Below are positions 14,492-54,237 of a stretch of DNA of 64,000 bases, piece after piece. The DNA lies in assembly GCA_965197475.1 (NCBI GenBank), contig CBDANF010000002.1, forward strand, positions 1,376,001 through 1,440,000, given 5' to 3'. Source of the stretch: Candidatus Poribacteria bacterium (GTDB taxonomy: Bacteria > Poribacteria > WGA-4E > WGA-3G). The first letter of the stretch is position 1. Each line of letters opens with the position of its first letter. Below the pieces are notes generated by a model that was not told the origin of the DNA, ran no database searches, and was given only the letters and a program-made list of their open reading frames with translations. The position numbers were made by a program, and so were the translations under genes.

Positions 14492-14531
14492 AAGCGTTGC
14501 TTCCTTGCGTAGAAGAAATCCGAATTAGTAT

Positions 14532-16843: not shown

Positions 16844-16867
16844 GGTTCAGTTCCCAAGTATAACCAT

Positions 16868-19096
16868 TTAGAATGCCGCCGTAATGCCTAAGTATGGGAG
16901 AATAGGCAACTGATAAATCGGGTTTTTATCTTTGTAGTCCTCTTCATATTGATAATCAAGAAGGTTTTTACGATTATAGGCGTTAAGTAGTTCTAAAAAA
17001 ATTCCTAACTCCCAACTATTAAAACGGAAGATTTTGCTCACGCGTAGGTCCAACCTGTGGTAGGGTGGTAATCTTTCTGAGTTTGTTTCACCATAAATAG
17101 GGAGATAGATAAATTTTCCGTTCCTGGGATCGGGTATGAGTGTAGAATCCACAACAGGTGTATATGGATTACCAGTTCGGTACTGCCATTTTGCACCGAA
17201 CTCCCAAGTAGGTGTAAGATTATAACTTGCAGCGAACGTAGCGACATGTGTTTGATCAAACGAATAGTAACGATATGGTTCGCCCGAACGGTCACGCCGT
17301 TTAGAAAGCGCATAAGCATAGGAAATCCATCCGAAAAACTTATCTCCACTTCTGTGCCGTAGAAAAATCTCAGTACCTTGTGCATAACCAACACCTTGAT
17401 TTAGAAAGATGGATCCTTTGTCAGATGTCACCAAATTTGCGAGGTCTTTGTAATAGGCTGCGATTTTGATTTCCGTATCTTGTGAAAGTTGACGTTTGAG
17501 TTCCACAATGTAATGGCTCGCTTGACTGGACTTTAACTCTGGATTACCAACAGTGTTTGAGAGTTGTGCAGGAATAGGAGTCTGGTTGTAGATTCCGTAA
17601 GCAAATTGGATCTCAGATCTGTTGGGAAGTTCCACACGGATGCTGCCTCTCGGTTGAATAGAGAGCTCATCAATTCGGTTAAAATAATCCAACCGCACTC
17701 CAAACACAACCGACACAAATGGTAATAGATTATATCTGTCTTGCAAGTAACTTTCAAGACGTTGCCCGCGCACAGATTCATCTATTTTGATCTTCTCTTC
17801 AAACCGGATGTCGTATTCTACCTCAGCTTCGTCTGGTATACGAGTGAATATACCGCTCACCTCTCCCGGTTCAGCACCGAGGATGAGTCCGGATTCCAAC
17901 CGATGTTTTTCGTTTAACTCATAAGTGAGGTCTTCACGGAGGGTGTAGGTTGGTGCATCAATATTAAGAGAGAGTAAGGGTCCGAAATTGACATCAAATA
18001 GAAAATCAGAGCGGGTAAGTGATAAAAAAGAGATGAGTCGTTCTGTGAGGGAGGAACGTAAATGAATCCCACCCCCTTGAAAACCACTTTCAAAACTCGT
18101 ATTTCCTCTAAAATCTTCGTCAACGTTTGCCCCGTCTAATGTTACAGCAAACTTGTCACCTGAAGCGAACAGATTAAAAAATAGTTGGTGTTTTTCGCTA
18201 AGGTCGTAGCCAGCTTTCAGTTGATAATCCCAGAAACGAGGAAAGGCAGTGATTGATCCTGTTGCAAACGAAAGGGAACCGATAAATAGGTCAATGTAAC
18301 TTCTGCGTCCTGCTGCATACCAATATCCTTTTTCGCCGATTTTCCCTTGGAGAAATCCTTCAGAGTAAAGTAGGTTGAGATTGAATTTTCCACGTAGATT
18401 TTTTGGACTGCTGTTTTGCGAATAGATGTCAATCACGGCTTGAGAATCCACACCATATTCAGCACCATAACCGCCTGCGTATACATCAATCCGGTCTATG
18501 ATTTCAGAACTGAGAGACGAAACGAGTCCACCAAAATGGTAGGGATAACCGACAGGCACACGGTCAAAGTAGTAGAGATTATCTTCATCGGAACCGCCAC
18601 GGATATAGAGGGCACCGCTAAAATCGTTCGCGACCCCGATGCCAGGGATTGCTGGCAGCGCACGCAGTGCATCACCCGCTGTGCCGGGAATACGTGCAAT
18701 TTCTTTGGATTGAATGCTCTTTTTAATAACAGTTTTTGGACTACGTTTTGCTTTTACCTCTACCGCTTCAAGTTCATAATCAGCTGTACTAACGAAAATT
18801 TTAGGTGTAAGTGTTTTGCCAGCTTCAATGGTAACAGTGGTTTTTTCTGCCGATTCGGAATTTGGAACAGATATAGATAAGGTATAGCTGCCCTCTGGGA
18901 TTTCGTTGAAAACAAACTGTCCAATTTCGTCTGTTTTTTGGTGTTTGTCAAGTTCAATTATGTGAACCTCAGCACCAGCTAACGGTTTGTCCGTGTCTGT
19001 GCTATAAACAGTGCCTTGAATTGTCCCTGTTTGGGCAAAAGCGGCTGTTGGAATTATTAAAATCATTAGTAGGTAAAAAAAGTTCTTCATGTTCAT
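16868..19096 (-). CDS. TonB-dependent receptor with carboxypeptidase-regulatory-like N-domain
   Basis: GTIQGTV N-domain, IRGG plug, YHRLDLR, terminal F. Confidence 0.9.
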   Translation of the reverse strand: MNMKNFFYLLMILIIPTAAFAQTGTIQGTVYSTDTDKPLAGAEVHIIELDKHQKTDEIGQFVFNEIPEGSYTLSISVPNSESAEKTTVTIEAGKTLTPKIFVSTADYELEAVEVKAKRSPKTVIKKSIQSKEIARIPGTAGDALRALPAIPGIGVANDFSGALYIRGGSDEDNLYYFDRVPVGYPYHFGGLVSSLSSEIIDRIDVYAGGYGAEYGVDSQAVIDIYSQNSSPKNLRGKFNLNLLYSEGFLQGKIGEKGYWYAAGRRSYIDLFIGSLSFATGSITAFPRFWDYQLKAGYDLSEKHQLFFNLFASGDKFAVTLDGANVDEDFRGNTSFESGFQGGGIHLRSSLTERLISFLSLTRSDFLFDVNFGPLLSLNIDAPTYTLREDLTYELNEKHRLESGLILGAEPGEVSGIFTRIPDEAEVEYDIRFEEKIKIDESVRGQRLESYLQDRYNLLPFVSVVFGVRLDYFNRIDELSIQPRGSIRVELPNRSEIQFAYGIYNQTPIPAQLSNTVGNPELKSSQASHYIVELKRQLSQDTEIKIAAYYKDLANLVTSDKGSIFLNQGVGYAQGTEIFLRHRSGDKFFGWISYAYALSKRRDRSGEPYRYYSFDQTHVATFAASYNLTPTWEFGAKWQYRTGNPYTPVVDSTLIPDPRNGKFIYLPIYGETNSERLPPYHRLDLRVSKIFRFNSWELGIFLELLNAYNRKNLLDYQYEEDYKDKNPIYQLPILPYLGITAAF

Positions 19097-19206
19097 GATC
19101 TGTGACTCTTGCTCCTATGCAAATGTGTTGAAATTTGTGTCCGTTGACACGTTAAATTATACAATTCTGTTGCCAGAATTGCAAATTGATCTATAATAGG
19201 GCAAAA

Positions 19207-21699
19207 TCAAAATTCAAGTGTTAGTCCAACATAGATAATACGCGGGAGTTGTGATATTTCGTCAGATTCCCATTCTTCAATTTCAATCTCTTCACCTTGA
19301 ATCTCAATCGTCGCTTCTCTAAAGATAAATTTTATCGTATTCTTGCGGTTGTAGAGATTCAGAATATCAAGGAATCCACCTATCTTCATGCCTCTAACGT
19401 TCCATTTATGACTGATTCTGAAATCTAACTTATGGTACGGTGTCAACTCGGCACGTAATTCCTCGTCAACACTTGCCAATAGCGGATTCAGTCCGCGGGT
19501 AACCGGATCTTGAATCAGGACGAGAGAACTAATCGGGACTTCAGAGGTGCCATTTAAATACTGCCATTTCACGCCTATCTCGAAATTTGACGTGAAGTTA
19601 TAGTTTGCGACAATACTTACGATATATGTGTTATCAAAGAGATAAGGTTGATAAGTAACATCAGGATTTTCTCGCCGCTCAGCGTGGGTGTATGCATAAG
19701 ATACCCATCCGAAGAATTTATCAGTGACCCGGTGACGTAAGAACGCCTCAACACCACCAACGTAAGCAGCACCTTGATTGAGATAGTTTGATACACCATC
19801 TTCTGTTGCTAATCTCCCTCCCGCAGAAGAAGCAGACTCCGGCTCGGATGTCGTTGAAACCTTATCTTTCGTTACTAATTTCTGCTCGTCCTTATAATAG
19901 GTAGCAAACTTGAATTCCGTTTGAGAGGTAAGATCATGTTCGATCTCCATGATATAGTGGCGTGCAAGACTGGATTTCAAATCTGGATTTCCGTTTTCTG
20001 ATAGCAGTTGATACGGTTTCGGACTCTGTTCATAGTTTCCGTATGCAAACCGAATATTGAAATCACTTGGAAGTTTGAAATTTACACTTCCTCTCGGTTG
20101 CACAGAAAGCTGTTCCGTCAAATCAAGGTAATCTAATCGTGTGCCAAGTGCAATCGAAACGGAAGGCAATGGGTCATACCGTGCTTGTAGATAGCCTTCG
20201 GAACGATAAAAATCGTGTCCAAATTCATAGTGTCTCTTTTCCAATTCTGTAACTTCGTAACGTGCTGGTCGACTCGTTCTGATTTCTCTCACACTATTGC
20301 CTTCAACAAAACGTGCCTCAATTTCAATACCTTCCCCGATGGGTTCATATTCGTAAGCTTGTAAGTCTTCAAAACTATTGGCTGGACTGAACGACAGAAG
20401 GAGACCCGATTCAAACTGCAGAGTGGGGTTTAATCTGTAGGATACATCTTCGCGGAGTGTCCAGACTGGCACTTTGACTTTAACGTCATAGTTATTGGTA
20501 AGTATCTCTTCGGCTACTAATTTACCGTCCTCCAGTTTAAATTCACCGTCTTCAAGCACATAGGCCACTACAAAAGGGTCTTCAAATTTTATATTGAGGA
20601 AATTGAAGGTGCGGGTAAATGAAAAATGGGATGTTAAATTTTCGGTAAAGTTTGAATGGAGATGGATGCCTTGTCCGGTAAAACCGTTTTTGAAATAGAA
20701 AGTACCTCTTTCAAGATGGGCATCTATAGAATCTTCTATTTCTTCCTCTCTAAAATGGAAATGGTCTGTTGCGGCAAAAGCGTTGAGTGTAAGATGATGG
20801 TTAGCTGTTAGTGGATAAGCAAATTTGAACTGATAATCTGAAAAATATGGGAATTGTTGCTCTGAACCTGTCTGTGCTTCAACAATCGGTCCTACAATGA
20901 AATCGAAGTAACTCCGACGTCCGGAAGCAGAGATATATCCTTTTTCCCCTATCCATCCTTCAAGCAATCCTCCAGAATAGAGTATATTTAGGTTGAACTT
21001 TCCATCCAACCTGTTTTCAATACTATCACGTGCATGGATGTCAAGCACCGCTTGCGAATCTAACCCAAATTGCGCTCCGTATCCACCTGCATAGATGTCA
21101 ATTTTCTCAATAGTTTCTGAGCTGATGGTTGACAGTAAACCACCCCAGTGAAAAGGGTATCCGAGTTGAGTTCTGTCAAGATAGTAGAGATTAGATCCAG
21201 GATCACTACCCCGAATATAGAGAACACCAAAGTAATCGTTTGGAATACCGATACTTGGAAGCGTGGTCAATCCTTTGAGTGCATCATTCATCACCCCAGG
21301 GATGCGGAGAAGTTCGCTGCCACGAATGTCTTTACGACTCACTGTTGGCGGAATGCGTTTCCCTTCAACGACGACTGTTTCTAACTCAAATACTTCACCG
21401 AGGGACATTTTCGCTTGTGTGGTATGTCCTGCGGTCACTTCAACAGTCGTTTTTGTTGGTGTAGTGAAGGAGGGATGTGTGATTGTGAGGGTGTATGTGC
21501 CGGGCGCAAGACCTGTGAACCAGACTTTACCGTCCGCATCACTTTTTTGACGTTCGTCTGTTTCAAGGATATGAACTTCTGCACCTACTAACGGTTCGTC
21601 TGTATCTCTGCTATAAACTGTGCCTTCAATTGTGCCTGTTTGAGAAAAGGCAGCTGAGGGGATTAGTAAAACCATTAGCAGGCAGATAAAACTTCTCAT
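19207..21699 (-). CDS. TonB-dependent receptor with carboxypeptidase-regulatory-like N-domain
   Basis: Paralog of the two adjacent receptors; terminal LEF. Confidence 0.9.
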   Translation of the reverse strand: MRSFICLLMVLLIPSAAFSQTGTIEGTVYSRDTDEPLVGAEVHILETDERQKSDADGKVWFTGLAPGTYTLTITHPSFTTPTKTTVEVTAGHTTQAKMSLGEVFELETVVVEGKRIPPTVSRKDIRGSELLRIPGVMNDALKGLTTLPSIGIPNDYFGVLYIRGSDPGSNLYYLDRTQLGYPFHWGGLLSTISSETIEKIDIYAGGYGAQFGLDSQAVLDIHARDSIENRLDGKFNLNILYSGGLLEGWIGEKGYISASGRRSYFDFIVGPIVEAQTGSEQQFPYFSDYQFKFAYPLTANHHLTLNAFAATDHFHFREEEIEDSIDAHLERGTFYFKNGFTGQGIHLHSNFTENLTSHFSFTRTFNFLNIKFEDPFVVAYVLEDGEFKLEDGKLVAEEILTNNYDVKVKVPVWTLREDVSYRLNPTLQFESGLLLSFSPANSFEDLQAYEYEPIGEGIEIEARFVEGNSVREIRTSRPARYEVTELEKRHYEFGHDFYRSEGYLQARYDPLPSVSIALGTRLDYLDLTEQLSVQPRGSVNFKLPSDFNIRFAYGNYEQSPKPYQLLSENGNPDLKSSLARHYIMEIEHDLTSQTEFKFATYYKDEQKLVTKDKVSTTSEPESASSAGGRLATEDGVSNYLNQGAAYVGGVEAFLRHRVTDKFFGWVSYAYTHAERRENPDVTYQPYLFDNTYIVSIVANYNFTSNFEIGVKWQYLNGTSEVPISSLVLIQDPVTRGLNPLLASVDEELRAELTPYHKLDFRISHKWNVRGMKIGGFLDILNLYNRKNTIKFIFREATIEIQGEEIEIEEWESDEISQLPRIIYVGLTLEF

Positions 21700-22076
21700 G
21701 ATCGGGACTCCTATGCAAATGTGTCGGTATTATGGTAGATTTTGGAATTACTTGGACACTCTGCAACAGTGAGGTTAGGAAACCTCCAAATCAAAGGTAT
21801 GAATGCCATTTAGGCATTCACCGCCTACCGGGAGACGAAAGTGTCTATATATTTTTACGCAATGAGTAGTTTTGGACTTGAGAAAAATTTTAAAAAATCG
21901 CTATAAAGCCTTGTGTCCACTGGGTTTATATGGTATAATATAGATAAGAAAATAGGGGGTTGGTAGCCCCCTAAATGAACACAAAAAGCGAGTTGCTTTT
22001 TGACGGTTCTAATCTTATCTGGTATTATATCAGAAATCCGTCAGAAAAAGCAACTCCTATTTCAAGGAGTTATCTG

Positions 22077-22958
22077 ATGGATTTGTTGAAGGTGATGGAG
22101 CGTTTTCCCGATCAAGAGAGTTGTATTTCGCATTTAGAGAAGATTCGGTGGCGAGGTAAACCTGTGTGTCCGCATTGTGAAAGCGATCATATAGGAGAAC
22201 GGACAGAAACAGAAATCGGTCGTATCGGTCGTTGGAACTGCCACGAGTGCCAAGTGAGTTTCAAGGTGACGTGCAGGTCGGTGTTTCACGGGACAAAGAT
22301 AGCGTTACAGAAGTGGTTTTTGGCTATTTCGTTGATAACGAATGCGAAGAAAAGTTTGTCAAGTCATCAACTTGCGCGCGATTTAGACTTGAATCAAAAG
22401 ACAGCATGGTATATCATGACTCGTATCCGTGCTGAAATGGCAAAGAAAGGTAACGTGCTACTACAAGGCATCATAGAGGCAGATGAAACTTACATCGGGG
22501 GTAAACCTCGTAAGCCTAATAAGAAGGAAGACCACGTGCCTGCCAAGCGTGGACGTGGAACAGAGAAAGACGCTATTATCGGGGCAGTACAGCGGGGCGG
22601 GAAAGTTGTAGCACAACTCGCTAAAGATTTGACAGGACGGACTATTTTAGACTTTATCCGAAGAGTCGTCAAAGTTGAGGATTCGGAGTTGATGACCGAT
22701 GAGTATAAGGCGTATCTCGCTATCGGCAAGGAGATGAAACACCATATCATAGATCATCAAACGCAATTTGTTGAGGGTGATGTCCACACAAACACAATTG
22801 AGGGGTTTTGGAGTCTACTCAAACGAGCTTGGTATGGAAGTCATCACCACTACTGGACTGAATATACGCCCCTGTATGTAGCAGAGGCGTGCTATAAATA
22901 CAACTATAGGAGCATTGACAGTATCTTTGATAAGTTTGTTAATGAAAGTATGCGGTGA
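22077..22958 (+). CDS. IS1595-family (ISXO2-like) transposase
   Basis: Zn ribbon CPHC..CHEC, EADETYIGG, MTDEY, HTNTIEGFWS; start chosen by AAGGAG RBS and match to 55554 copy (293 aa). Confidence 0.95.
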   Translation: MDLLKVMERFPDQESCISHLEKIRWRGKPVCPHCESDHIGERTETEIGRIGRWNCHECQVSFKVTCRSVFHGTKIALQKWFLAISLITNAKKSLSSHQLARDLDLNQKTAWYIMTRIRAEMAKKGNVLLQGIIEADETYIGGKPRKPNKKEDHVPAKRGRGTEKDAIIGAVQRGGKVVAQLAKDLTGRTILDFIRRVVKVEDSELMTDEYKAYLAIGKEMKHHIIDHQTQFVEGDVHTNTIEGFWSLLKRAWYGSHHHYWTEYTPLYVAEACYKYNYRSIDSIFDKFVNESMR

Positions 22959-23885: not shown

Positions 23886-23992
23886 AGTATACCTCACTTT
23901 GCTTGAGATAAATTGGTGCATAGCGTATTTCCAGTGCGTTATGCACTGTTCAAGCATATAAAATTGATACGTTAAACGGGTATCGTTCGTAG

Positions 23993-24069
23993 GTTCGTTT
24001 ACACCTTTCTATGGGTGAGGGCAGGACACAACACAAGGAGTGTTGCGATAGAAATCCTGCCCAACGAAC
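23993..24069 (-). ncRNA. Predicted structured leader RNA (three-way junction with bulge-loop kissing)
   Basis: GTTCGTT/AACGAAC, GGGCAGGA/TCCTGCCC, CGCAACAC/GTGTTGTG, CACC/GGTG; bulge TTTCTAT complementary to loop ATAGAAA; begins just after TTGACA-N18-TATACT. Confidence 0.65.
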
Positions 24070-24153
24070 TTGAGAATAGTATAACATGGAAAGAATTTGA
24101 GTGTCAAGTGAAAAATTTGAGAAAAAATTTCAAGTCCAAAACTACTCATTGCG

Positions 24154-24326
24154 TAAAGTTATTACACAACAGACCTTTAGAACCTTTAGAACTTTATGAT
24201 CTGTCAAGCGATCCATTGGAAGCGACAGACACTGCACAGACAGATACTAATCTTTATAAAGAGATGGGACATTTGTTACAGGAGGAAACACAGAAAGCGG
24301 GCAGTATCCCCTGGCAAAAAAGCTAA
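24154..24326 (+). pseudogene. Sulfatase C-terminal fragment truncated by IS1595
   Basis: ELYDLSSDPLE motif; 5' part absent. Confidence 0.7.
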
Positions 24327-24636: not shown

Positions 24637-25344
24637 TTGTCTAAACAAGTGAATGGAAATGATGGGACAAGACTAAAGATTGATACGGATCCACATTTGG
24701 AAGAGAACAGCAATACTGTTGAAATGCAGTCGGAAAGGGATATGGATGAAGCAACAAATCCGCCAATTTCACAGGATAATGCTGAATTACTCCAGTCGCT
24801 TTCGCTCACAGAAATAAATCAAACCTTGGCAGCATTGCAAGATCTGTTCGAAAAGCAAATTGCTCGGAACCAGAATCAGACCCAGATGTATGACAAATTA
24901 TATGCTGAAATGAAGGACTATAAAGAGAGTTTTTTACTTGAAGTGCTTCACAAACCGATTATCCACAATCTGATCCAACTTTACGATAGTTTTGTATCGC
25001 TTGAATCTCAACTTGATGACATTCTTATTGATAAAGAGGAGAATATTCTTTTGGATGAACTGTCACAATACCGGAAGAATTTGGAGAACTTCCGGTTTGA
25101 ACTGGAAGAGGTGCTATACCGCATGGACGTGACACCTTATAAGGACTCTCTGGACACGCTTGACCGACAGTTGCACAAAACGCGCAAGGTAATACCGTCT
25201 GATGATCCCAAACAGGATAAAAAAGTTGCGGAAGTTCACAAAATTGGGTTCTACTGGCGTGAAAAAGTGTTCCGACCAGAAGAGGTGACGATTTTCCGTT
25301 ATACACCCTCCATAGGTGAGAAAGGGGGTAAAACGGATGGGTAA
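24637..25344 (+). CDS. GrpE-like nucleotide exchange factor
   Basis: Coiled coil, D..LH, VAEVHKIGF...FRPEEV; overlaps hsp70 start. Confidence 0.8.
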   Translation: MSKQVNGNDGTRLKIDTDPHLEENSNTVEMQSERDMDEATNPPISQDNAELLQSLSLTEINQTLAALQDLFEKQIARNQNQTQMYDKLYAEMKDYKESFLLEVLHKPIIHNLIQLYDSFVSLESQLDDILIDKEENILLDELSQYRKNLENFRFELEEVLYRMDVTPYKDSLDTLDRQLHKTRKVIPSDDPKQDKKVAEVHKIGFYWREKVFRPEEVTIFRYTPSIGEKGGKTDG

Positions 25345-26931
25345 AGTTGTTGGAATCGATTTAGGAACTACATTTTCTGTGATTGCACACGTCAATGAAC
25401 ATGGGCAATCGGAGATTATCCCTAATTTAGAAAGTGATCTATTACCCCATCGGTGATTTTGTTTGAGGACAACCTCGTAACAGTCGGAAAAATCGCCAAA
25501 CAGAATGCCAGAGCGGTTCCTGAACAGATTGTAGAGTTTGTCAAACGTGAGATGGGTAAACCTAAAGCGGAATTCTTTCGAACATTTAATGCAAAGGACT
25601 ATTCCCCCGAAGAACTCTCCGCACTTATTCTCACAAAACTCAAGCAGGATGCTGAAGCATATCTGAATGAAGAAATTACGGATGCAGTTGTCACTGTTCC
25701 TGCCTATTTTCACGATGCTGAACGGGAGGCTACCCGCAACGCAGGAAAAATCGCTGGATTGAATGTTCTACAAGTTCTTAATGAACCTACTGCTGCTGCA
25801 CTTGCTTACGGCATGGATCAATTGGGCAGTAACCAAAATGTGTTTGTGTTCGACCTTGGTGGCGGGACATTTGACGTAACCATCATGAACGTTTCCGAAT
25901 CAGAAATTCAGATGCTTGCAACGAACGGTGATCACAGACTGGGAGGTAAGGATTGGGACGATAAAATTATCACGCACGTCGCTGAGATGTTTGAGATAGA
26001 ACATGGAGAAAATCCGTTGGAGGACCTTCACACCTATCAAGACATTCAACTGGATGCGATAGGCGCGAAAGAATCTTTGTCCTTGCGGCAGCGAGCATTA
26101 ATCGTTTGTGGATACAATGGCAAAACAACCCGTGTTGAATTGACACGCGAAAAATTCGAAGAACTTACTGCTGACTTGCTTGAAAGGTGTCGAACTTTGT
26201 GTGATGTTGTCCTTTCGGAAGCAGAAATGACTTGGACAGATATTGACAATATCCTATTGGTAGGCGGCTCAACTCGGATGCCTATGGTGCAGCAAATGAT
26301 TGCCGCAATCAGTGGGAAAGAAATCAATCCACATCAAGTTAATCCTGATGAAGTTGTCGCAATCGGTGCAGCAATTCAGGGAACACTCCGCCAGATATCC
26401 GAAGGAAGCACCGAAACCGTAGATATGCCTGACGCTGTCATTGAGCGATTCATTGGACCGGACGGTGCCCCAAAGGTGACAGTTACAGATGGTGCCACAC
26501 ATAATCTCGGACTTGTCGTCCTTAATTCCCAACGTGAATATATGATTCACGTCATGATTCCCAAAATGACTGCTGTTCCGTGCGAAATTGCGGATAAATT
26601 CTTGACGGTTGACCGCAATCAACCTTCAGTTTTAATTGAGGTAGTGCAGGGACTTGAACAGGACCAACTCAAGGATAAAATTGATCTATTTGAGGAATAT
26701 AAATTGGGTGAATGTACCCTTGAACTGCCCCCTGGGTTGCCGCAAGGATCTCCAATTGAGGTGAACTACAAATATAACTTGGACCAGAATCTTGAGGTGA
26801 CGGCAAAATCCCTCACGGATGATGGTCCTACAGCTGTTTATGATATCTATTCCATTATTGAAAGACCAACACTCAATGAAGAGGAAGTTGCGCAGGCACG
26901 AACAGATCTACAAGACCTTGTCGTTGAATAA
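25337..26931 (+). CDS. Hsp70/DnaK-family protein, atypical (no lid); 1-nt frameshift near 25440
   Basis: MGKVVGIDLGTT at 25337 in a different frame from TVPAYF, NEPTAAA, DLGGGTFD, LVGGSTRMP. Confidence 0.9.
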
Positions 26932-27024
26932 ATAAGGTTTTGAAACGAAATTACCTTTTTGGGAACAGCATATTATTAGTACGCCTTCTGTCTTCCTCAA
27001 GTATGTGTCAAGGGAAATAAACGT

Positions 27025-28245
27025 ATGTCCAAGCGTGAGGAATTTATAACATTTCTCAATGAGCTCAAAATAGTTTCGCGTACTATTTCTGACGAACAGC
27101 GCAAAGGGCTTTTACAACGAGCAGTGCAGCATCATAACCTTTCTGTTGCGGAGGCAACTGAAATTCTGGGTACATCGGGATTAGTTGTTGGTGAAAACGT
27201 CAACTACTTTGAGATATTAAACCTCTCCATTGAAGACCTCCACAACTTAAATGAATCGGATATCAAGGCACGTGTTGAAACTTCACACAAAAAACTGTAT
27301 ACTGCTTCATTAATGGCGGGTGGTCGCCCCCGCTCCGATGGTAGAACAGAAGAACAGTGGCGGACGCTTTTGAATCAAGCGCGTGATGCGCTAAAAGAGC
27401 CACAAAACCGCCGCGCACACCTCGCTACCTTCCAGCATGGTGAAGATTTCATAGATGAGCCTCCAGTTCCTTTATATCTTGACAACATGGAACTTATCCC
27501 CGCAGGTGAATTTCAAATGGGAAGCAATGATGATGAGTCATTCAGTGATGAACATCCTATTCACACTGTTTTTCTTAACGCATTCTATATTGACAAATAT
27601 CCGGTGACGAATGCACAGTATAAGGCATTTGTAGATGCAAATCCGCAATGGAGCAAACCGCGTGGGTTCATAAAATTCATCCCTGCAAGATACCATGACG
27701 ACTATTACCTCCTCCACTGGAATAAGAACTACTACCCTGAGAGTAAAGCTGATCATCCGGTTGTTCACATTAGTTGGTATGCGGCGATGGCTTATGCAGA
27801 GTGGATAGGTAAGCGTTTACCGACAGAATCTGAGTGGGAGAAAGCAGCACGTGGTGGATTGGCAGGTCAAAAATATCCATGGGGAAATTTGATTGATACT
27901 GACATGGCAAACTTTGCCAAAAATGTTGGACAGACGACATCTATAGGGGAGTACCCCGCGAACGGATACGATTTATACGATATGGCGGGCAACGTGTGGG
28001 AGTGGTGCCTTGATAAATGGGATAATGGCTTTTACGAGTCTTCGCCAAGTACTAACCCGATCTCAGGTGACAGCGTAGATAGTATTATGGACAATTTTAC
28101 AAAATTTGAAACATCGCGTGTATTGCGTGGAGGCTCCTGGTACAATACTGCTGAAAACGTGCGAGTCACCAAACGTTCTGGGGCTCCGCCGGAGTACACG
28201 AATGCTAACATCGGTTTCCGATGTGTTCAATCTATTTCACCGTGA
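27025..28245 (+). CDS. J-like N-domain + FGE-sulfatase (SUMF1) domain protein
   Basis: NYFEIL...LNQARDAL..P.NRRAH; IPAGEFQMGS, RLPTESEWEKAARG, DMAGNVWEW, RGGSW...GFRC. Confidence 0.9.
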   Translation: MSKREEFITFLNELKIVSRTISDEQRKGLLQRAVQHHNLSVAEATEILGTSGLVVGENVNYFEILNLSIEDLHNLNESDIKARVETSHKKLYTASLMAGGRPRSDGRTEEQWRTLLNQARDALKEPQNRRAHLATFQHGEDFIDEPPVPLYLDNMELIPAGEFQMGSNDDESFSDEHPIHTVFLNAFYIDKYPVTNAQYKAFVDANPQWSKPRGFIKFIPARYHDDYYLLHWNKNYYPESKADHPVVHISWYAAMAYAEWIGKRLPTESEWEKAARGGLAGQKYPWGNLIDTDMANFAKNVGQTTSIGEYPANGYDLYDMAGNVWEWCLDKWDNGFYESSPSTNPISGDSVDSIMDNFTKFETSRVLRGGSWYNTAENVRVTKRSGAPPEYTNANIGFRCVQSISP

Positions 28246-28310
28246 TTTTTTGTTTCATTACACTTTTGGTCCGTGTGTGAACACACCAATTCTTAAAAAG
28301 AAGCAAATAG

Positions 28311-29610
28311 ATGTCTCAACGCGATGCGTATATAACCTTCATTAACGAGTTTAAAACGGTTTCACCGACGATCTCCGAAGAACAACGCAAAGGATTACTT
28401 CGTCGAGCAGTACAACAGCATGAGCTTTCTGTTGATGAAGCGTTTGAAATTCTGAATGCATCTGGATTGGTTATCGGTGAGCGGATAGATTATTTTGAGG
28501 TACTCGGTTTATCAATCTCAGATATTGAAACCCAAAGTGAATCGACTATTGTCAATAGCGTTGAGGTTGCACACAAAAAACTGTATACTGCTTCATTAAT
28601 GGCAGGTGGTCGCCCTCGCGCCGATGGTAGAACAGAGGAGCAATGGCGAATGCTTCTAAATCAAGCGCGTGAGACCTTGATTGATCCCCATAAAAGGCGC
28701 GAATACGTTGCTATGCTACAGCACGATGAGGCGGACTCGCTTTTAGAAGAGAAGCACCTCCTACCTTTGAACTATCTGATGTTGACAAAACAGACAGTCT
28801 GGAGTTAAGTCGTCAGATCGTTCCACCTGATGTGAATGTGCCGACTGACATGGTGTTCATCCCCGCAGGCGAGTTCCGAATGGGAAGCGATGACGCAGAA
28901 GCAAACGAAGACGAACATCCAATACACACTGTTTTTTTCAACGCGTTCCTTATGGATAAATACCCAGTGACCAATTCGGAATTTAAGGAATTTCTCAATG
29001 TTAACCCGCAGTGGCGGAAGCCAGAGTCATTCAAAGACTGTATTCCTATGGCTTATCACGATGGTGGCTACCTTAGTCACTGGGGCGACGAAACCTACCC
29101 GTACGGTAAAGGCGATCATCCGGTCACTCAGGTGAGTTGGTATGCAGCGATGGCTTACACACAATGGGTAGGTAAACGCCTGCCGACAGAGGCAGAGTGG
29201 GAAAAAGCTGCACGGGGAGGTTTCGTCGGGAAGAAGTATCCGTGGGGCGATTCTATGGATTCTAATACGCAAAGTAACACCTATAATTTAGACGATGCCA
29301 TCACGGTTGGCAGTTATTCTGCCAACAGATACGGTCTATATGACATGAGTGGCAACGTATGGGAGTGGTGCCTTGATGCGTATGATGCGGATTTCTATGT
29401 GAGTTCCCCACATAGAATCCATTTTCAGGTGTGAACAGCGTGGAGTGGGTCGTAGAACATTTCAGAAGTGTTAAGATTTCTCGCGTACTACGTGGAGGTC
29501 CTTGGGGCGTTGATTCTCAAGGTGCGCGGGTCTCTCACCGATTCAGAAGTAGTCCCACTGACACACTTCCTACTTTCGGATTTCGCTGTGCAATGGATAT
29601 TACATCATAA
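28311..29610 (+). pseudogene. J-like + FGE-sulfatase paralog with two frameshifts (~28750, ~29415)
   Basis: Pieces 28311..28808, 28832..29434 and a terminal RVLRGGPW...FGFRCAMDITS* ending at 29610. Confidence 0.8.
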
Positions 29611-29670
29611 TGTATGTTTTTAACCTTTAACGCTGTTGTAAACCTGACTGACCATGTAAGGTAAACACAC

Positions 29671-31024
29671 ATGTCAAAACGTGATGAATTCATTGAGGTC
29701 ATAAACACCTTCAAAACTGTTTCTCTGAGTATTACAGATATACAACGGCGAGGGCTGCTGAAACAAGCGGTCCAGAATTACGCCCTTTCTGTTGAGGAAG
29801 CCTCAGAAATTCTGAAGTCTCTGGGGATGGTAGTCGGAGAAGAGGTAAACTATTTTGAAGTATTGGGTCTTTCAATAGAGAAGATTCAAGGGTTAGACGA
29901 ACAAACTATTGTGAACGTTGTTGAGGCATCTCACGATGAGTGTTATAGAACGTCATTGCGTGCGGGCGCGCATTCGTCCTGATGGTAAAACAGAAGAACA
30001 GTGGCGTAATATTCTGAACCAAGCACGTGATACCTTAATAGATGCCCAAAAGCGGCGAGAATACGTGGCGACATTCCTGCTACAAGCAGACGTATTAGCA
30101 GAAATATCTCTACCGCAAGATCGACCTCTTTCCGAAAATGAATTTCAGGACATAGAACCGATACCTTCAAATATCCCAGAACCAACGGTTCCAAATGCAG
30201 AAACGGATATAACTCCTGCAAGTGATCTTGAAACTGCCTCAAGTCCCGACATAACACGAGTGCCTCCTAATATTGATGCACCTACTGATATGGTGCTTAT
30301 TCCGGCAGGTGAGTTTCAGATGGGCAGCCAGGACGAAGATGCAAATGGCACCGAAAGGCGTGTGCATTCACTTTTCGTAGAAGCGTTTCTTATTGACAAA
30401 TATCCTGTTACCAATGCACAATATAAGATTTTTCTGGATGCGAATCCTCAGTGGCAGAAAAAGAGGATTGTTGAAATTTATCACGACGGGAACTACTTAA
30501 TAACTTGGAGTGGAAACAACTACCCTCGAGGTAAAGCAGACTATCCGGTAGTTGATGTGAGTTGGTATGCAGCAATGGCTTATACACAATGGTCTGGCAA
30601 GCGTTTGCCAACGGAAGCAGAATGGGAGAAAACCGCACGCGGTGGATTAGTTGGGAAAATATACCCATGGGGTGATGAAATTGATATGAGCATGGCGAAT
30701 TTTGGGATGCATGTCGGAAAAACAACACTTATTGGGAAGTATCCGCCTAACGACTACGGTGTATATGACATGGTGGGTAATGTGTGGGAATGGTGCCTTG
30801 ATGAATATGATCACAGCTCACAACGTCCAAACCCCGGTTTAATTGTTGACAGTATTAGTGAAATCACCAATAATTTTTTGAGTATTGAAACTTCTCGTGT
30901 AGTACGGGGCGGTTCTTGGGCAAGTAGCGAACGTGCCGCGCAAGTCGCTTACTGCGGGTGGGCTGCTCCAATTGTTACATACTACAGCTACGGGCTTCGA
31001 TGTGTAAAAGACACCACCTCTTAA
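29671..31024 (+). pseudogene. J-like + FGE-sulfatase paralog with one frameshift (~29968)
   Basis: 29671..29982 and 29918..31024 join into a full paralog. Confidence 0.8.
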
Positions 31025-32470: not shown

Positions 32471-33114
32471 TTAATCTCGATTTTTTAGTGCTGCCCAAGT
32501 TGTTGCTAATTTGTCAGTGGGTTGAACAGCGTGTGGTTCTGCCCCTTCAATATCGCTTACATATTTTCCTTCATAGAGACGGATATGGTCAACCCATACA
32601 TCAATCTTCTCTATCCCCATGATTATACCCGCGCGCGAATTTACGTCATCCACAGGCATCTCAAAGGTGATGAAAAATTCCTTCCACGTTTCAGATAGAC
32701 TAATTGATCTCGCGCTGTATACATTCCACGGATCACCTTGATGCATAGTACGCATAGTGGCGTTTCTCTGTTTTCCACTCTTTGCCCACAAACTATAGGT
32801 ATAGGTGGTGTCTTTCTCAAGTGTGAAGGGTTGCTGATAGAATTGTATGTGTCCTAATGCATTGCCTGCTTTACTGATTTTGATATAGGCAGCGTTTTTC
32901 CCGATAACCGGTTCTGCCCTAACGCCTTCCGTTAGGAAAGCTGCGGTAGCACTTTCGTGTGTCCAGTGGTGCCATTGGTCAAGATGATCGTTAAATCACC
33001 GTTCTTGAGGATATTTTCTGGTGGTTCCGCGGCGTATGTAAGCGTTGCGAGTCCGAACAACCCTATCAACACAAATAGACAGATATAAATCGAAACGCCC
33101 TTAGTTGTGTTCAC
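32471..33114 (-). CDS. Secreted carbohydrate-binding (CBM4/9-like) protein; 1-nt frameshift near 32993
   Basis: Signal peptide, NILKNGD, YTYSLWAK, WVDHIRL, C-terminal AVQPTDKLATTWAALK. Confidence 0.75.
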
Positions 33115-33973
33115 CTTCACCCTTCCGGTTATGCTCACCTCTATGTTCTGAGTCATGCTCACCATGTTCTTTCCCATGGCTATGTTCACCTTCGCCGACT
33201 TCGGGATGTGCAGTCCATCCATCAAAATCCGTGCTTGTTGCGTTGAGTTGAACTTCTCTTTTTTCACCGGATGCAAGGTCATCTGGTTTGGTTGGACCGA
33301 GTTCCTTTCCGTTGGACAAGTGAGCTTCAACCCTAACTTGCTTCAAGGTTTCATCGGTGGTGTTTTCTATGGTGCCTTCAAAGGTATTGTTTTGCGCGTT
33401 GTAATTCATGATGAGTCGCACGCCATTTCTGACCTTATCGTAGGTTTGATTTAGCGCAAGTTTAGCTCCTGATTCTTCTTCGCCTTCACCCTTTCGGTTA
33501 TGCTCTTTCTCACCTTCCCGGTCATGCTCACCTCTATGTTCTGAGTCATGCTCACCATGTTCTTTCCCATGGCTATGTTCACCTTCGCCGACTTCGGGAT
33601 GTGCAGTCCATCTGTCAAAGTCCTTACTTTTTGCGATGAGTTGAACATCCGTTTTTTCACCGGATGCAAGGTCAACCGAGGGTGTCGGACCGAGCTCTTT
33701 CCCGTTAGACAAGTGAGCTTCAACCCTAACCTGCTTCAAGGTTTCATCGGTGGTGTTTTCTATGGTGCCTTCAAAGGTATTGTTTTGCGCGTTGTAATTC
33801 ATGATGAGTCGCACGCCATTTCTGACCTTATCGTAGGTTTGATTTAGCGCAAGTTCAGCCCCTGATTCTTCTTCAACGTTTTCAGTGGACTGTTTTGCCA
33901 TCTTTGCACAACCGATAATAACGGCAACTAATAACACAGCAATGAGAATTGCATTCAATTGATTCATATTCAT
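33101..33973 (-). CDS. Lipoprotein with two repeated Ig/FxLYD-like domains and His/Glu-rich linkers
   Basis: Lipobox IIGC; ~393-bp internal duplication; GEHSHGKEHGEHDSEH tracts. Confidence 0.8.
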   Translation of the reverse strand: MNMNQLNAILIAVLLVAVIIGCAKMAKQSTENVEEESGAELALNQTYDKVRNGVRLIMNYNAQNNTFEGTIENTTDETLKQVRVEAHLSNGKELGPTPSVDLASGEKTDVQLIAKSKDFDRWTAHPEVGEGEHSHGKEHGEHDSEHRGEHDREGEKEHNRKGEGEEESGAKLALNQTYDKVRNGVRLIMNYNAQNNTFEGTIENTTDETLKQVRVEAHLSNGKELGPTKPDDLASGEKREVQLNATSTDFDGWTAHPEVGEGEHSHGKEHGEHDSEHRGEHNRKGEGEHN

Positions 33974-34171
33974 TAGGTATCTCCCTATCTGAAATGTTGG
34001 TTTATGTCAGTTAATTTTCAATTACTACGCCTACTGGGTAAATTGTGTGGCTTGACTGCACATCTGACACATTTTCGAGTGGACCTAAGTTCGCTACTTG
34101 AATATTAGAAATGTGCAGATGCGTTCAAGACAGAAACATTGTATCACATACTCTGTCTCTATAGATAGGAT

Positions 34172-34209
34172 TCCCAGCATCGACCTACTTTCCCACGAGG
34201 TCGCCCCGA
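34172..34209 (-). repeat. Diverged copy of the 5S rRNA 3' end
   Basis: TCCCAGCATCGACCTACTTTCCCACGAGGTCGCCCCGA vs TCCCGGCAACGACCTACTTTCCCGCGGGGTTGCCCCCGA at 34851. Confidence 0.8.
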
Positions 34210-34217
34210 GACTGTGA

Positions 34218-34622
34218 CTAATGCTCACTACCTCCTACTTCGGGATGTGCAGTCCACCCATCAAAGTTCGTACTTGTTGCGATGAGCTGGACTGTTTTTT
34301 TTTCACCGGGGGCAAGATCGACCAAGGGTGTCGGACCGAGCTCTTTCCCGTTTGATAAGTGGACTTCAACTAGAACCTGTTTCAAAGTTTCGTCAGTGGT
34401 GTTTTCTATGGTGCCTTTAAAGGTATTGCTTTGTGCGTTGTAATTCATGATGAGGCGCACGCCGTTTCTGACCTTATCGTAGGTTTCGTCCAGCGCGAGT
34501 TCAACGTTAGATTCTTCACCCTCTTCGCTAATGAGCAGGTCGTCTGTCCTTGAACAGCTGCTCATAACGGAAACTATCGCCACGATGGCAATTGCAGCAA
34601 GAATTCTCAAAATTTGTGTCAT
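34218..34622 (-). CDS. Lipoprotein, single-domain paralog of 33101..33973
   Basis: Lipobox MSSC; TYDKVRNGVRL...WTAHPEVG. Confidence 0.8.
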   Translation of the reverse strand: MTQILRILAAIAIVAIVSVMSSCSRTDDLLISEEGEESNVELALDETYDKVRNGVRLIMNYNAQSNTFKGTIENTTDETLKQVLVEVHLSNGKELGPTPLVDLAPGEKKTVQLIATSTNFDGWTAHPEVGGSEH

Positions 34623-34805
34623 GGATATTTTCCTTCCTTATTGTAGGCACTCTCCCGAGCGCAAAAATGTGAATTATACCAAATTAGCAAACTTCAACGT
34701 GATAAGTTGACTCCAACGTGGATTTGCTTCAAAGTTTTTTCGTCCACTGCCATGCTTAATGCTGCGGCGGAGAACAGAATTCCCCTAGCTAAGATGACTG
34801 TTGCT

Positions 34806-34843
34806 AAAAAACCAAAAAGGGTAGATGATTAACCTACCCTTTG
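34806..34843 (-). terminator. Intrinsic terminator of the rRNA unit
   Basis: AAAGGGTAG...CTACCCTTT hairpin followed by T-tract on minus strand. Confidence 0.75.
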
Positions 34844-34850
34844 AAAAGAA

Positions 34851-34968
34851 TCCCGGCAACGACCTACTTTCCCGCGGGGTTGCCCCCGAAGTATCATCAG
34901 TGCTGAAGGACTTAACTACCGTGTTCGGAATGGGTACGGGTGGGTCCCCTTCGCTATAGCCACCGGAA
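34851..34968 (-). rRNA. rrf: 5S rRNA
   Basis: CCCGTACCCATTCCGAACACGG and GAAAGTAGGTCG signatures. Confidence 0.95.
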
Positions 34969-35029
34969 AGGTGTATAAAAATATTTGACAACTGTATAGG
35001 TAATGAGGGGTCGGTAGAGAAAGATATAA

Positions 35030-38019
<2,990 letters not shown>

Positions 38020-38114
38020 GGTGATATCTTTATTCTTCTACCGATTTACCCTCTCTATACAGTTGTCAAAGAACGCCGCCTATTATCAGAAGTCAAAACA
38101 CTTCTTTTAGGCGA

Positions 38115-38187
38115 TGGAGATGAGCGGAGTTGAACCGCTGACCTACTGCGTGCAAAGCAGTTGCTCTCCCAGCTGAGCTACACCCCC
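38115..38187 (-). tRNA. tRNA-Ala(TGC), CCA not encoded
   Basis: GGGGGTGTAGCTCAGCTGGGAGAGC...TTTGCAC...GGTTCAACTCC...CATCTCCA. Confidence 0.95.
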
Positions 38188-38193
38188 TCGCGC

Positions 38194-38365
38194 ATGGTAT
38201 ATTAGTATACCACTAAATCCAACATAAATCAAATTCTCTTCAAATGGTATATTAGTATACCATAGAATCCAACATAAGTCAAATTTATTTTCAAAGAACG
38301 GGATTTAATAAAACTTCAATCCCTAAGCAGATTTTAAGTATACCACATAACGTGGTAGATGTCAA
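38194..38365 (-). promoter_or_regulatory. Three tandem sigma70-type promoters for tRNA-Ala-23S-5S
   Basis: TTGACA/TTGACT/TTGATT each N17 to TATACT; two lie in a 50-bp tandem duplication. Confidence 0.75.
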
Positions 38366-38734
38366 ATTTATTTTACAAAAAATGAAACTGTGTCGTTGTT
38401 ACATTATAGTGAAATCTAAAATTACCTTTACAGTTCTCTATAGGTTTGATGCGTTTGTAGTCGCGCAATTCATTGTGCCTCTTACATATACTGGTAAGCG
38501 CGCTTTTACGAAGTTTAAGTATTTAAATCGGTAATCCCGATTTCCCATGTCCGCTAGGTGCGGTTTCCTAACCGCACCTAGCATTGATAAGAAATTACCG
38601 AATTATTTTTTTAATCTTCATTTAAGCGCGCTGTTAACAGTGTTCAAGTTATTATACGCTTTACTATAAGTTTTTACAGATTTAATTTGACTTTTGAGGT
38701 TGGATTGAGTAAAATTAACCACAATTAATTTGTT

Positions 38735-38776
38735 GCGTTACTAAATTTGATATAGCGTTACTAAATTTGATATAGC
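38735..38776. repeat. 20-bp tandem duplication
   Basis: GCGTTACTAAATTTGATATA x2. Confidence 0.8.
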
Positions 38777-38823
38777 TTAATATGGCTTTTCGGTTTAGGT
38801 ATTTTACTGCGGAAAACACATGC

Positions 38824-39420
38824 ATGAAAAAACACTCCATTCGTTATTCTTTTATTTTCTTGATTTATCTGTTAGTCTTACTATCGTTTTTATCTGAAGC
38901 AATAGCATAATCCGTTAACATTTATGGATGTAAGGGCGAGTCCAAAGTTTTTTACGGTAACGGTTATAGAAACCACACTTCCTCCACAACAGCAGCAAGA
39001 AACGCCAACACAACAACAAGAACCACCATCACAGCAAAATCAGGAAACACAACAGCAACCTGATCCAGTCCCAGTGTCAGCACCTTAAGGAGCCACCCAC
39101 CGTCCTCAGTAAACTTTCTGAACCCGGACAAATCGGTTTCAGTGAGTTGATGTTCACTACCAAAGGAGGGCAAGATCCTCTTCCACAGTGGATAGGACTT
39201 TACAACAACTCCGACACAGAAGCGATAAATCTCAAAGGTTGGAAACTCGAAATAGAGACACGCGACAAAAATGGTAACCATCGACACGTTGTGATCTCGC
39301 TTGAAGATTTGCATATCTTGCCAAAATAGATGGCACTCATAGTGACATGGACAGGACGGAACTCTGAAGATATCCCGGAAGATTACGTCTACAAATTTTT
39401 CGATCAGCACTTTGACCGGG
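38824..39420 (+). pseudogene. Degraded lamin-tail-domain secreted protein
   Basis: Signal-like start, Gln-rich linker, FSELMF..QWIGLYN..INLKGWKL; internal stops; cut by IS630 remnant. Confidence 0.65.
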
Positions 39421-39439: not shown

Positions 39440-40113
39440 CTTGATTATGACGCACTCAAGCAACATTTCGCTGATTTTCCCGATAGCACACAAATGGAGC
39501 GTGCTGCTCACTTCAGTGTTTCCAAGCACTGTATCTGGTATGCGCTTAACAAACTCAACATCACGCGAAAAAAAGACACTCACGTATAAGGAACAATGTC
39601 CCCTAAAACGGGAAGCGTCCCTCAACGCACTTCAGACAGCACAGCAGTGCTGGAAAACACCCATTTTTGTTGACGAAAGTGGATTTACCACAGAAGCACC
39701 CGAAGGTATGCTTATGCGCCGAGAGGCATTTGTGTTGAAGATAAAGTCTCAAGCAATCGGTATAGATGCGCCTCTTTGATTGCAGCACACATTGCGGGTT
39801 GTTTTAGAGTGCCTGTGCTCTTTGAAGGTGCTTGCGATGGCAGTGCCTTCAATGCGTGGCTCAAGCAGATGTTATGCCCGCTGCTTGATGAAACCCATGT
39901 CGTGATTTTGGATAATGCGTCCTTTCACAAAGGCACAGAGACAGAAGCGATTATTGCTGCGTGTGGTGTGAGTTTACTGTGTTTACCACCATATGCCCCA
40001 GAACTGAACCCGATTGAGAAAGATTTCGCCAACATCAAGCGGATACGAGAATACAACACAGAGACATCTATTGATGAATAATAAAAATGTATAAGCAATT
40101 ATGGATTTCACTA
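39440..40113 (+). mobile_element. IS630-family transposase remnant (frameshifted, 5'-truncated)
   Basis: RKKKTL, FVDESGF, ILDNASFH, LPPYAPELNPIE. Confidence 0.8.
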
Positions 40114-42710: not shown

Positions 42711-42847
42711 AGAGATGTCTCCTTTTATTGCCAATGGACACGCGAGATATGACACCCGCGTGCACCGAAGTATTATGTAAAATTGACTAAGAGAGTTATG
42801 CGATGCAAGCAGCATCGCTATGTAATAGATGAATTGACAAGGAATAT

Positions 42848-45129: not shown

Positions 45130-45138
45130 TATAATGAT

Positions 45139-45912: not shown

Positions 45913-46004
45913 GAGGGTATTGGTTAAATAATGATGCAAGAATTAGCGGGATACCCTCTGAACCGCGCTGCATCATATTTCAGTTGCGGTAATGATAACA
46001 CTTA

Positions 46005-54182: not shown

Positions 54183-54237
54183 CAACTCTGACAACGAGGG
54201 GACCCTGTCCCCTCTAACTCCAAAGGAGATTAAAATC

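Follow-up and report, generated by a model that had tools for sequence, protein, structure and literature searches.

A lid-less Hsp70 linked to tandem HPD-less J-like/FGE adaptor genes in one family of Poribacteria, and a decaying copy of the locus

Introduction

An operon of a sponge symbiont of the Poribacteria raises the question of what an Hsp70 protein without a lid could do together with J-like proteins that lack the HPD motif. The operon occupies positions 24637-31024, on the plus strand, of a stretch of 64,000 nucleotides (nt) of contig CBDANF010000002.1, referred to here as the window, in whose coordinates positions are given. It consists of five genes: a grpE-like gene, an Hsp70 gene and three paralogous genes, called adaptors in the following. 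Each adaptor has an N-terminal part of about 150 amino acids (aa) followed by an FGE-sulfatase domain (PF03781; E-values, E, of 2.2e-64, 5.4e-55 and 3.3e-60), its "head". In an earlier note made from the sequence alone, the N-terminal parts had been taken for J-like domains and the operon for an Hsp70 system in which adaptors with different heads deliver specific targets.

With a probability of roughly 60%, the operon represents an accessory Hsp70 machine specific to a single family of Poribacteria and composed of a GrpE-like factor, a lid-less Hsp70 and tandem cytoplasmic adaptors. The anatomical part of the earlier proposal, namely a private Hsp70, J-like adaptors and differing heads, is upheld by the data on fold, linkage and heads presented below.

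The J-like domain and its loop motif

The N-terminal part of the adaptors comprises two modules. Module A (residues 1-56) is modelled as a three-helix bundle (pLDDT 93). Informative relatives of this module (searched as residues 1-58) did not emerge: a profile search of the PDB returned E of at least 0.65, the best Foldseek match had E 2.1, and VIA-align reached at best Z 5.4, to assorted three-helix bundles. The second module, the J-like domain, is modelled with helices at 61-64/69-73, 77-97, 109-124 and 126-137 (AlphaFold2, AF2; pLDDT 84). The two modules are separable, as their order is reversed in one paralog of this genome and many relatives carry the J-like part alone. The adaptor starts with MSKREEF… and has no hydrophobic leader; the adaptors should therefore be cytoplasmic.

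Whether the N-domain adopts a J fold had been set beforehand as one of two tests on which the proposal of the earlier note could fail, and the fold was recovered by several routes. In hhalign, residues 60-133 align to positions 1-63 of 24 canonical Poribacteria J-domains with 93% probability and E 3e-7. Foldseek returned J-domains in nearly all of its best rows, at weak E of 0.24-3. In a VIA-align comparison with 48,161 chains, J or J-like domains fill the first 22 places (Z 5.7-8.9; model range about 57-140, of which 58-80 residues align); the Z values are middling and the ranking is uniform.

The loop between helices II and III is longer than in canonical J-domains. It carries the motif x-R-x-D-[GS], mostly PRPDG or PRADG, in 201 of the 202 unique N-domain copies, and HPD in none of the 202. 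Four residues, R103, D105, W112 and L116, do not vary in an alignment of 117 rows.

The same genome encodes a relative that retains the canonical motif. This protein of 349 aa (locus L059:1459-2508, C3) combines a canonical J-domain (…KYHPDKN…; PF00226 E 6.5e-28) with an FGE head. This head and that of adaptor 1 share 52% identity over 254 aa, a value within the range found among the array paralogs. Because this HPD-J/FGE relative shares the architecture of the adaptors, the J-like module occupies the place of a true J-domain. The L059 protein looks like a sister or an ancestor of the J-like adaptors. Open frames of about 350 aa resembling it occur in two genomes of the same genus.

The lid-less Hsp70 and the GrpE-like protein

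The grpE-like product matches PF01025 with 42.6 bits (E 6.6e-11), above the Pfam threshold of 25.8, and reaches 18 bits against the NCBIfam equivalogs of housekeeping GrpE, the cut-off of which is 176. Since it passes the Pfam threshold and yet lies far below those of the equivalogs, it is a divergent member of the GrpE family. Its orthologs, present at 24 of the 46 loci surveyed (see below), are 56-77% identical. The stop of the gene overlaps the Hsp70 gene, whose ATG lies at 25337, by 8 nt, and the two genes are predicted to be translationally coupled.

The Hsp70 can be described from the intact ortholog of locus L011, which has 531 aa and is 92% identical to the pieces in the window. Residues 1-350 align to DnaK 1-374, the nucleotide-binding domain, and residues 403-520 to positions 401-508 of Thermus thermophilus DnaK, the beta substrate-binding domain (domain E 1.2e-5). 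The alpha-helical lid was not found in the alignment to DnaK, as the protein stops at residue 531, after the beta domain. All 33 unique orthologs are lid-less and have 523-534 aa; the canonical DnaK of the same genome has 641 aa. Ahead of the linker, which reads VTVTD versus ILLLD, the Hsp70 has an insertion of about 20 residues.

Further differences concern the surface that reads the J-domain. In Escherichia coli, according to PMC8215388, R167 of DnaK forms a hydrogen bond with D35 in HPD, and D477 is the partner of K48 in the J-domain. In the segment …GLNVLQVLNEPT… of the lid-less Hsp70, a Gln is nearly invariant across the orthologs. The same position is Arg in the canonical DnaK of the genome (…VLRIINEPT) and in an Hsp70-vWA paralog (…VQRIINEPT). 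The position aligned with D477 is Asn. E. coli numbering was placed on the alignment by sequence context, a mapping of our own. On this mapping, both sides of the classical HPD-R167 contact appear to have changed together.

A protein of 536 aa, P0159, joins a Gln-type Hsp70 nucleotide-binding domain to module A and a J-like domain with a degenerate loop. It is a single case that may be either a "Rosetta stone" in support of a partnership or a gene-call artefact.

A second, more divergent and intact system is found in the same genome (G000:C2:902125-915748; L088:2125-15748). Its two Hsp70s are a vWA fusion of 698 aa and a lid-less protein of 533 aa, the latter sharing 68-70% identity with the ortholog of L011. 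Besides a GrpE-like gene, the locus encodes three J-like proteins (loop VPRPDGKT), of which two have ankyrin repeats, an FGE-domain protein of 504 aa and a CsgG-like protein.

Non-catalytic and variable heads

In genuine FGEs, the CxxxxC motif behind GGS is the catalytic cysteine pair. The heads of the adaptors match the FGEs of T. curvata and S. coelicolor with E 1e-38 to 2e-37 and SUMF2 (1y4j) with E 1.5e-34. In the alignment to the T. curvata enzyme, the segment GGSFLCHESYCNRYR stands opposite GGSWY---NTAENVR; with 5nxl/6s07 as reference, the three-residue gap takes the place of the first Cys, and a residue other than Cys is aligned with the second. Among 171 full-length heads of FGE type, none has GG..CxxxxC, and 122 have no Cys in this segment at all. 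Because both cysteines are missing, the heads are non-catalytic, as the earlier note had assumed.

Variability is distributed unevenly over the adaptors. Column entropy has its minimum in the fold core of the head (0.36-0.52; residues 251-280 and 321-330) and its maximum in the linker and in residues 331-360 and 371-390, the former active-site region of FGE, where the loop reaches 2.4.

The FGE fold, which resembles C-type lectins, is the most frequent of several heads. The 198 complete unique adaptor open reading frames (ORFs) comprise 170 with an FGE head, about 14 of WD40 type, a few with ankyrin or other heads and several truncated ones. A profile search of 1.84 billion representative proteins yielded 135 matches at E<=1e-3, with no flood of ordinary J-proteins. 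Among the 82 members of at least 200 aa, a set that leaves out one protein of 3,058 aa, there were 21 with FGE, 11 with ankyrin, three with WD40, three with PG_binding_1, two with HEAT and two with canonical DnaJ domains.

Genomic linkage, distribution and evolution

Gene neighbourhoods were surveyed with one genome per species, which gave 46 loci, 43 of them from entries titled Poribacteria and three from entries titled "uncultured bacterium". The lid-less Hsp70 (73-92% identical) lies upstream of the adaptors on the same strand at 36 of the 46 loci. The arrays hold 1-10 adaptors in the available DNA (median 4; 213 in total). Their flanks are conserved: genes for a UxuA-like protein, a LamG protein and a sulfatase precede the operon and its array, a GH95 gene follows, and behind it stand DNA methylase and GNAT genes on the opposite strand.

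The two protein families also share their distribution. In 151 genomes sampled across the phylum, adaptors occur in 55 and the lid-less Hsp70 (E<=1e-180) in 54, all of these within the 55, and neither occurs in 96; not one of the 151 genomes has the Hsp70 without adaptors. As related genomes are not independent, this co-occurrence is a pattern and not a statistic. Nearly all positive genomes belong to one family (53 of its 99 genomes). Two genera make up most of them: g1 has the system in 32 of 38 genomes and g9 in 20 of 56. The system is accessory, because its presence is patchy within genera. The linkage to hsp70 and grpE in other genomes that the earlier note had called for was thus found for the Hsp70 at most loci and in 54 of the 55 genomes, and for the grpE-like gene at only about half of the loci.

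Orthologous adaptors have dN/dS values of 0.08-0.52 and the Hsp70 values of 0.02-0.07, from which it follows that the intact copies are under purifying selection. Gene-wide positive selection was not detected, with dN/dS below 1 in 13 of 13 ortholog pairs. The repertoire nevertheless changes. Two genomes with 99% identical Hsp70s have seven adaptors in common, six of them 91-97% identical and the other 76%, and one of these genomes has three additional adaptors whose best matches in the other are 51-64% identical. Three adaptor pairs from the locus comparisons L015/L016 and L011/L024 have a far higher dS in the head than in the N-domain (1.52/0.24, 0.88/0.19 and 0.49/0.25), which suggests exchange of heads, homogenisation of the N-domains or gene conversion among tandem paralogs. 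A reverse transcriptase, as expected for a diversity-generating retroelement, was not noticed in the scanned ORFs, although no dedicated search was made.

The decaying copy of the window

The coordinates of the operon genes in the window are compiled in Table 1. The placement of the five genes in the earlier note holds, but the note missed the decay: the Hsp70, adaptor 2 and adaptor 3 are frameshifted, which leaves two intact genes, the grpE-like gene and that of adaptor 1. The overlap of the grpE-like gene with a gene for an Hsp70 of about 530 aa was likewise confirmed, the size by the 531-aa ortholog; in the window, however, the Hsp70 gene is split into two frames. The three J-like/FGE paralogs are recognisable by the strings RPRSDG, RPRADG and RIRPDG and by their PF03781 domains, and their N-terminal strings GGRPRSDGRTEEQW, GGRPRADGRTEEQW and RIRPDGKTEEQW were found; a complete reading frame is left in adaptor 1 alone.

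Table 1. Positions of the operon genes and of the upstream sulfatase remnant in the window
Feature	Position	Strand	Remarks
Sulfatase remnant	23976..24326	+	C-terminal ~100 aa with internal gaps; found by BLASTP against the L011 sulfatase upstream of grpE
grpE-like nucleotide-exchange factor gene, intact	24637..25344	+	235 aa from TTG; exact start uncertain
Lid-less Hsp70, first piece	25337..25456	+	ATG to in-frame TGA; PF00012 profile positions 1-30
Lid-less Hsp70, second piece	25438..26931	+	Frame of 497 aa; PF00012 E 1.3e-109
Adaptor 1, intact	27025..28245	+	406 aa: module A 1-56, J-like ~57-137, linker, FGE head 154-401
Adaptor 2, pseudogene	28311..29610	+	Frames 28311..28808, 28730..29434, 29416..29610
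Adaptor 3, pseudogene	29671..31024	+	Frames 29671..29982, 29915..31024

The first piece of the Hsp70 (MGKVVGIDLGTTFSVIAH...) agrees with the orthologs. A deletion of 1 nt after 25439 leads to a TGA at 25454-25456: the protein reads MGKVVGIDLGTT…IPNLESD up to the stop and resumes as SITPSVILFED… in the frame from 25438. The loss of 1 nt is deduced from the orthologs, of which 33 of 33 read ES[ED]R[ILM]T[PS]SV at this site. Adaptor 2 is broken near 28740-28808 and near 29395-29400, and adaptor 3 inside the J-like loop, near 29950-29960.

Frameshifts of this kind may also be produced by sequencing or assembly, and the genome is a three-contig assembly, a type in which indel errors can occur. That the locus is really intact is nevertheless very improbable. 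Public sequencing data were available as contigs of three runs (X1, X2 and X3) from two samples of one study; these are contigs and not raw reads, and the window itself may derive from one or two of the runs. An X1 contig of 2,012 nt covers 28570-30581 with zero gaps and zero mismatches, and contigs of X2 and X3 are also identical across the frameshift sites of the adaptors. As the three frameshifts of the adaptors recur gap-free in every run, they are genuine in the DNA of both samples. In addition, no break interrupts five other long genes of the window (12263-14524, 14744-16846, 16871-19114, 19210-21729 and 61060-63129; about 11.5 kb).

The Hsp70 site differs between the runs. In X1, a G is inserted behind 25439 (depth 86.5 of 86.5), which yields the codon CGT and restores the frame; the insertion is absent from X2 (0 of 26.3) and X3 (0 of 13.4). 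With an intact allele in one sample (run X1) and a deleted one in X2 and X3, an Hsp70 null allele therefore segregates in the population. In the survey of the phylum, the copy of the window was the only stop-carrying match of this Hsp70 among those listed. The runs also differ at 24681 and 28114, where X1 and X2 have C for T at 28114.

The surroundings of the operon are affected as well. The sulfatase remnant matches the L011 sulfatase with E 5e-33 (BLASTP; 59 of 133 positions identical, 30 gap positions), and a full-length sulfatase stands at the equivalent position in L020, L012 and L025. The array is split in this genome: the GH95 gene and two intact adaptors are located at C3:1368912-1374044 (L003, L004, L089). 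An IS1595 transposase gene lies near this detached tail (C3:1376059-1376997), and another lies upstream of the operon at 21975..22958. The window is rich in insertion sequences (IS; 3346-4405, 21975-22958, 39674-40078, 43992-48196 and 52524-55608), with transposase genes that include DDE_3 pieces, three of IS1595 type, an rve integrase, DDE_Tnp_4, DDE_Tnp_1 and IS1. This richness fits rearrangement and gene decay of the locus. With its sulfatase stump, split array, two adaptor pseudogenes and polymorphic Hsp70 frameshift, the locus is decaying in this genome. The decay and the segregating null allele imply that the system is dispensable. The copy of the window is thus a poor specimen for functional work, yet it documents both processes.

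Proposed mechanism and alternative explanations

From the gene anatomy, the J fold, the genomic linkage, the shared distribution and the missing catalytic residues, a working cycle can be proposed. Each adaptor head would bind its own ligand, and the J-like domain would dock on the private Hsp70 where J-domains usually bind and where the Arg that reads HPD has become Gln. Docking would trigger the hydrolysis of ATP, whereupon the Hsp70 could clamp or remodel the bound target, and the GrpE-like protein would reset the cycle. The changed pair of motifs might keep this circuit apart from the housekeeping DnaK/DnaJ, to judge solely by the altered contact residues. A repertoire so variable and so quick to evolve points to the recognition of many different partners, of foreign or host origin, rather than to a general role in folding. 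Taken to its full extent, such a system would have a re-coded Hsp70/J interface, run as an orthogonal circuit and direct an expandable, hypervariable repertoire of FGE, WD40 and ankyrin heads against foreign or host proteins; this extension is tentative, and it is more doubtful than the accessory machine as such.

Several observations weigh against the accessory machine or its proposed action. The Pfam DnaJ model (PF00226) misses the J-like domain, with a best E of 0.058 and 14 bits against a cut-off of 27.8, for adaptor 2 only, and a genome scan with this model does not pick up the adaptors. A sequence profile built from 117 copies of the domain found no match in the PDB at E<=10. According to the accessible text of PMC8215388, substitutions in HPD abolished the stimulation of ATPase in every system tested, and for this reason an HPD-less J-like domain may not stimulate at all. 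Contact of the domain with the Hsp70 and stimulation of its ATPase are thus only proposed; a complex prediction for the lid-less Hsp70, the J-like residues 55-140 and ATP scored 0.00 twice, but its controls were unfolded, and it is evidence neither way. At 10 of the 46 loci, adaptors occur without the Hsp70 in the available DNA. Twelve of the 36 Hsp70-bearing loci have no grpE-like match to the protein of the window, and L025 has an ankyrin-repeat gene in the grpE position. The operon encodes no effector, and its site is fixed amid genes of carbohydrate degradation, with no recognisable defence island. In searches with the system models of PADLOC-DB 2.0, the core proteins had no match (0 families for the grpE-like protein and adaptor 1); the Hsp70 gave only a weak hit (PDC-M61B, E 2.3e-4). 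Finally, the Hsp70 of the strain in the window is broken, so the machine may not run there.

Some of these points are shared with other explanations. The J-like domain could be a non-stimulating partner, similar to Pam16/Tim16, that tethers, restrains or dimerises, with hydrolysis left to the substrate or to a canonical J-protein encoded elsewhere. The complete absence of HPD and its consequences in the systems tested would agree with this, the genome has three canonical J-proteins, and the structural search also matched Tim16 (2guz_B, Z 6.0). Together with the matching change of the Hsp70 Arg, however, the near-invariant R-x-D-G resembles a contact that was re-tuned and not one that was lost; moreover, no HPD J-protein was found in the operon at the loci examined. 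A non-stimulating role is considered unlikely. The same degree of doubt applies to an immune-type recognition repertoire, with the heads as sensors of foreign proteins, such as those of phages, and the Hsp70 cycle as the switch, by analogy with MoxR-vWA and GTPase/Hsp70 systems. The lack of an effector gene in the operon, the fixed site between the sulfatase and GH95 genes, the missing PADLOC matches of the core proteins and the gene-wide purifying selection speak against it, and no link to phages was seen. In its favour are the patchiness even within genera, the gain and loss of adaptors between near-identical genomes, the hypervariable loop of the heads and the Hsp70-vWA fusion at the paralogous locus. 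The PADLOC hits among the 82 family members are mostly to repeat models, but one member matches the ZorE HNH models. The accessible text of PMC7159879 lists FGE/"FGS", WD40, ankyrin and HEAT among sensor- or effector-associated domains and describes GAP1-N2 systems with Hsp70, GrpE and DnaJ-fused components.

A further explanation concerns sulfatases. Heads without cysteines could, in the manner of SUMF2/pFGE, bind unfolded sulfatases and recruit the Hsp70, which would keep them fit for modification or export, so that the adaptors would be sulfatase-specific co-chaperones. In this genome, 41 sulfatase and 23 FGE-domain matches were counted, the operon stands directly 3' of a sulfatase gene in the intact loci, and the heads are nearest to genuine FGEs and to SUMF2. 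The loop that in FGE bears the cysteines in contact with the substrate is, however, the least conserved part of the heads, which misfits a single shared sulfatase motif. Heads of WD40 and ankyrin type stand in the same arrays, and the system was not found in 96 of the 151 genomes, although the phylum is known for its sulfatases. This role is improbable, more so than either the non-stimulating or the immune-type one. The accessory Hsp70 machine with tandem adaptors thus remains the preferred explanation.

Comparison with known systems

The literature search found no published description of an Hsp70 with GrpE and HPD-less J-like/FGE adaptors, and the system appears to be an unusual, unpublished variant of the Hsp70/J/GrpE theme. 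With the DnaK-DnaJ-GrpE triad and its class C J-proteins it has in common an Hsp70, a factor of the GrpE family and a J fold fused to a domain for a client or a site; the likeness to class C extends to the HPD-J protein with an FGE head, of the same architecture, in this genome. It differs from them by R-x-D-G in place of HPD, a longer helix II-III loop, the lid-less Hsp70 with Gln at the position of R167, tandem arrays of up to 10 adaptors and the extra three-helix module ahead of the J-like domain.

Three types of bacterial Hsp70, DnaK, HscA and HscC, each with its own J partners, are distinguished in the accessible part of PMC8215388. HscC with DjlB/DjlC and HscA with HscB are specialised Hsp70s that have co-evolved with J partners of their own and do not cross-react with DnaJ, as is proposed for the Poribacteria Hsp70. 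HscA and HscC have 550-620 aa (550-580 in the HscC type), shortened lids and no GrpE (PMC8215388, same part), and their J partners retain HPD or HPE (PMC10410713). The Poribacteria Hsp70, in contrast, has 531 aa, no lid, a coupled GrpE-like gene and partners without HPD or HPE; this distinction is drawn by these features. The "DnaK derivates" of complex bacteria, whose lids are shortened or deleted (FEBS J 2026, PMC13580251), are similar in being extra lid-less paralogs of unknown function; an array of J-like adaptors or a GrpE partner is not mentioned for them in the accessible text of that paper.

The GAP1-N2 and MoxR-vWA systems (Kaur et al. 2020, PMC7159879, in the part available) come close in other respects. 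The former combine an accessory Hsp70 and GrpE with a J-fused variable component (FNIII), and in the MoxR-vWA ternary systems C-terminal, non-catalytic "FGS" domains serve as variable binding modules. The Poribacteria operon differs from both in having no GTPase, MoxR, vWA or effector gene and a J module without HPD.

Two further kinds of protein show comparable losses. Tim16/Pam16 has a J fold without HPD, but it regulates the true J-protein Tim14 rather than acting alone, and the Poribacteria operon has no HPD partner and conserves a new loop motif. SUMF2/pFGE, like other non-catalytic FGE-sulfatase domains, has the FGE fold without the catalytic Cys pair. The Poribacteria heads differ in being probably cytoplasmic, to judge by their sequences, fused to a J-like domain and present as many paralogs with a variable loop at the former active site.

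HPD is treated as a defining feature of the J-domain with which it cannot dispense, and a large survey of J-proteins dropped sequences without the full motif (PMC10410713, accessible sections). Here, a J fold carries another near-invariant loop motif, and its family is locked by phyletic pattern and gene order to a lid-less Hsp70 in which the residue that reads HPD has changed. As a built-in control, the genome also encodes the HPD sister, which has the same head. An active pair would be a natural example of rewired Hsp70/J specificity, a source of parts for orthogonal chaperone circuits and a function for at least one class of lid-less "DnaK derivates". If the repertoire serves recognition as suggested, it would represent an immune-like or host-interaction use of Hsp70 that has not been described before. 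The arrays also bear on the roles of the numerous FGE, WD40 and ankyrin proteins of sponge symbionts.

Other features of the window

Downstream of the operon, the minus strand carries at 34851-38187 a 5S rRNA (34851-34967), a 23S rRNA (35029-38018) and a tRNA (38115-38187); a 16S rRNA was not found within 34600-39000. Between the operon and these genes, at 33101-34622 (minus strand), lies the gene of a protein of 290 aa that is internally duplicated and contains stretches rich in His (…HSHGKEHGEHDSEHRGEH…); it has no Pfam match and is accompanied by a 134-aa paralog just downstream. A large WD40-repeat gene occupies 40542-43696 on the minus strand in two abutting frames (40542-42854 and 42851-43696) beside an IS and may be broken. 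At 60400-61075, also on the minus strand, an overlapping pair of genes encodes a HepT-like RNase and an MNT nucleotidyltransferase, likely a toxin-antitoxin module, and adjoins the gene for an NAD-dependent DNA ligase (61060-63129).

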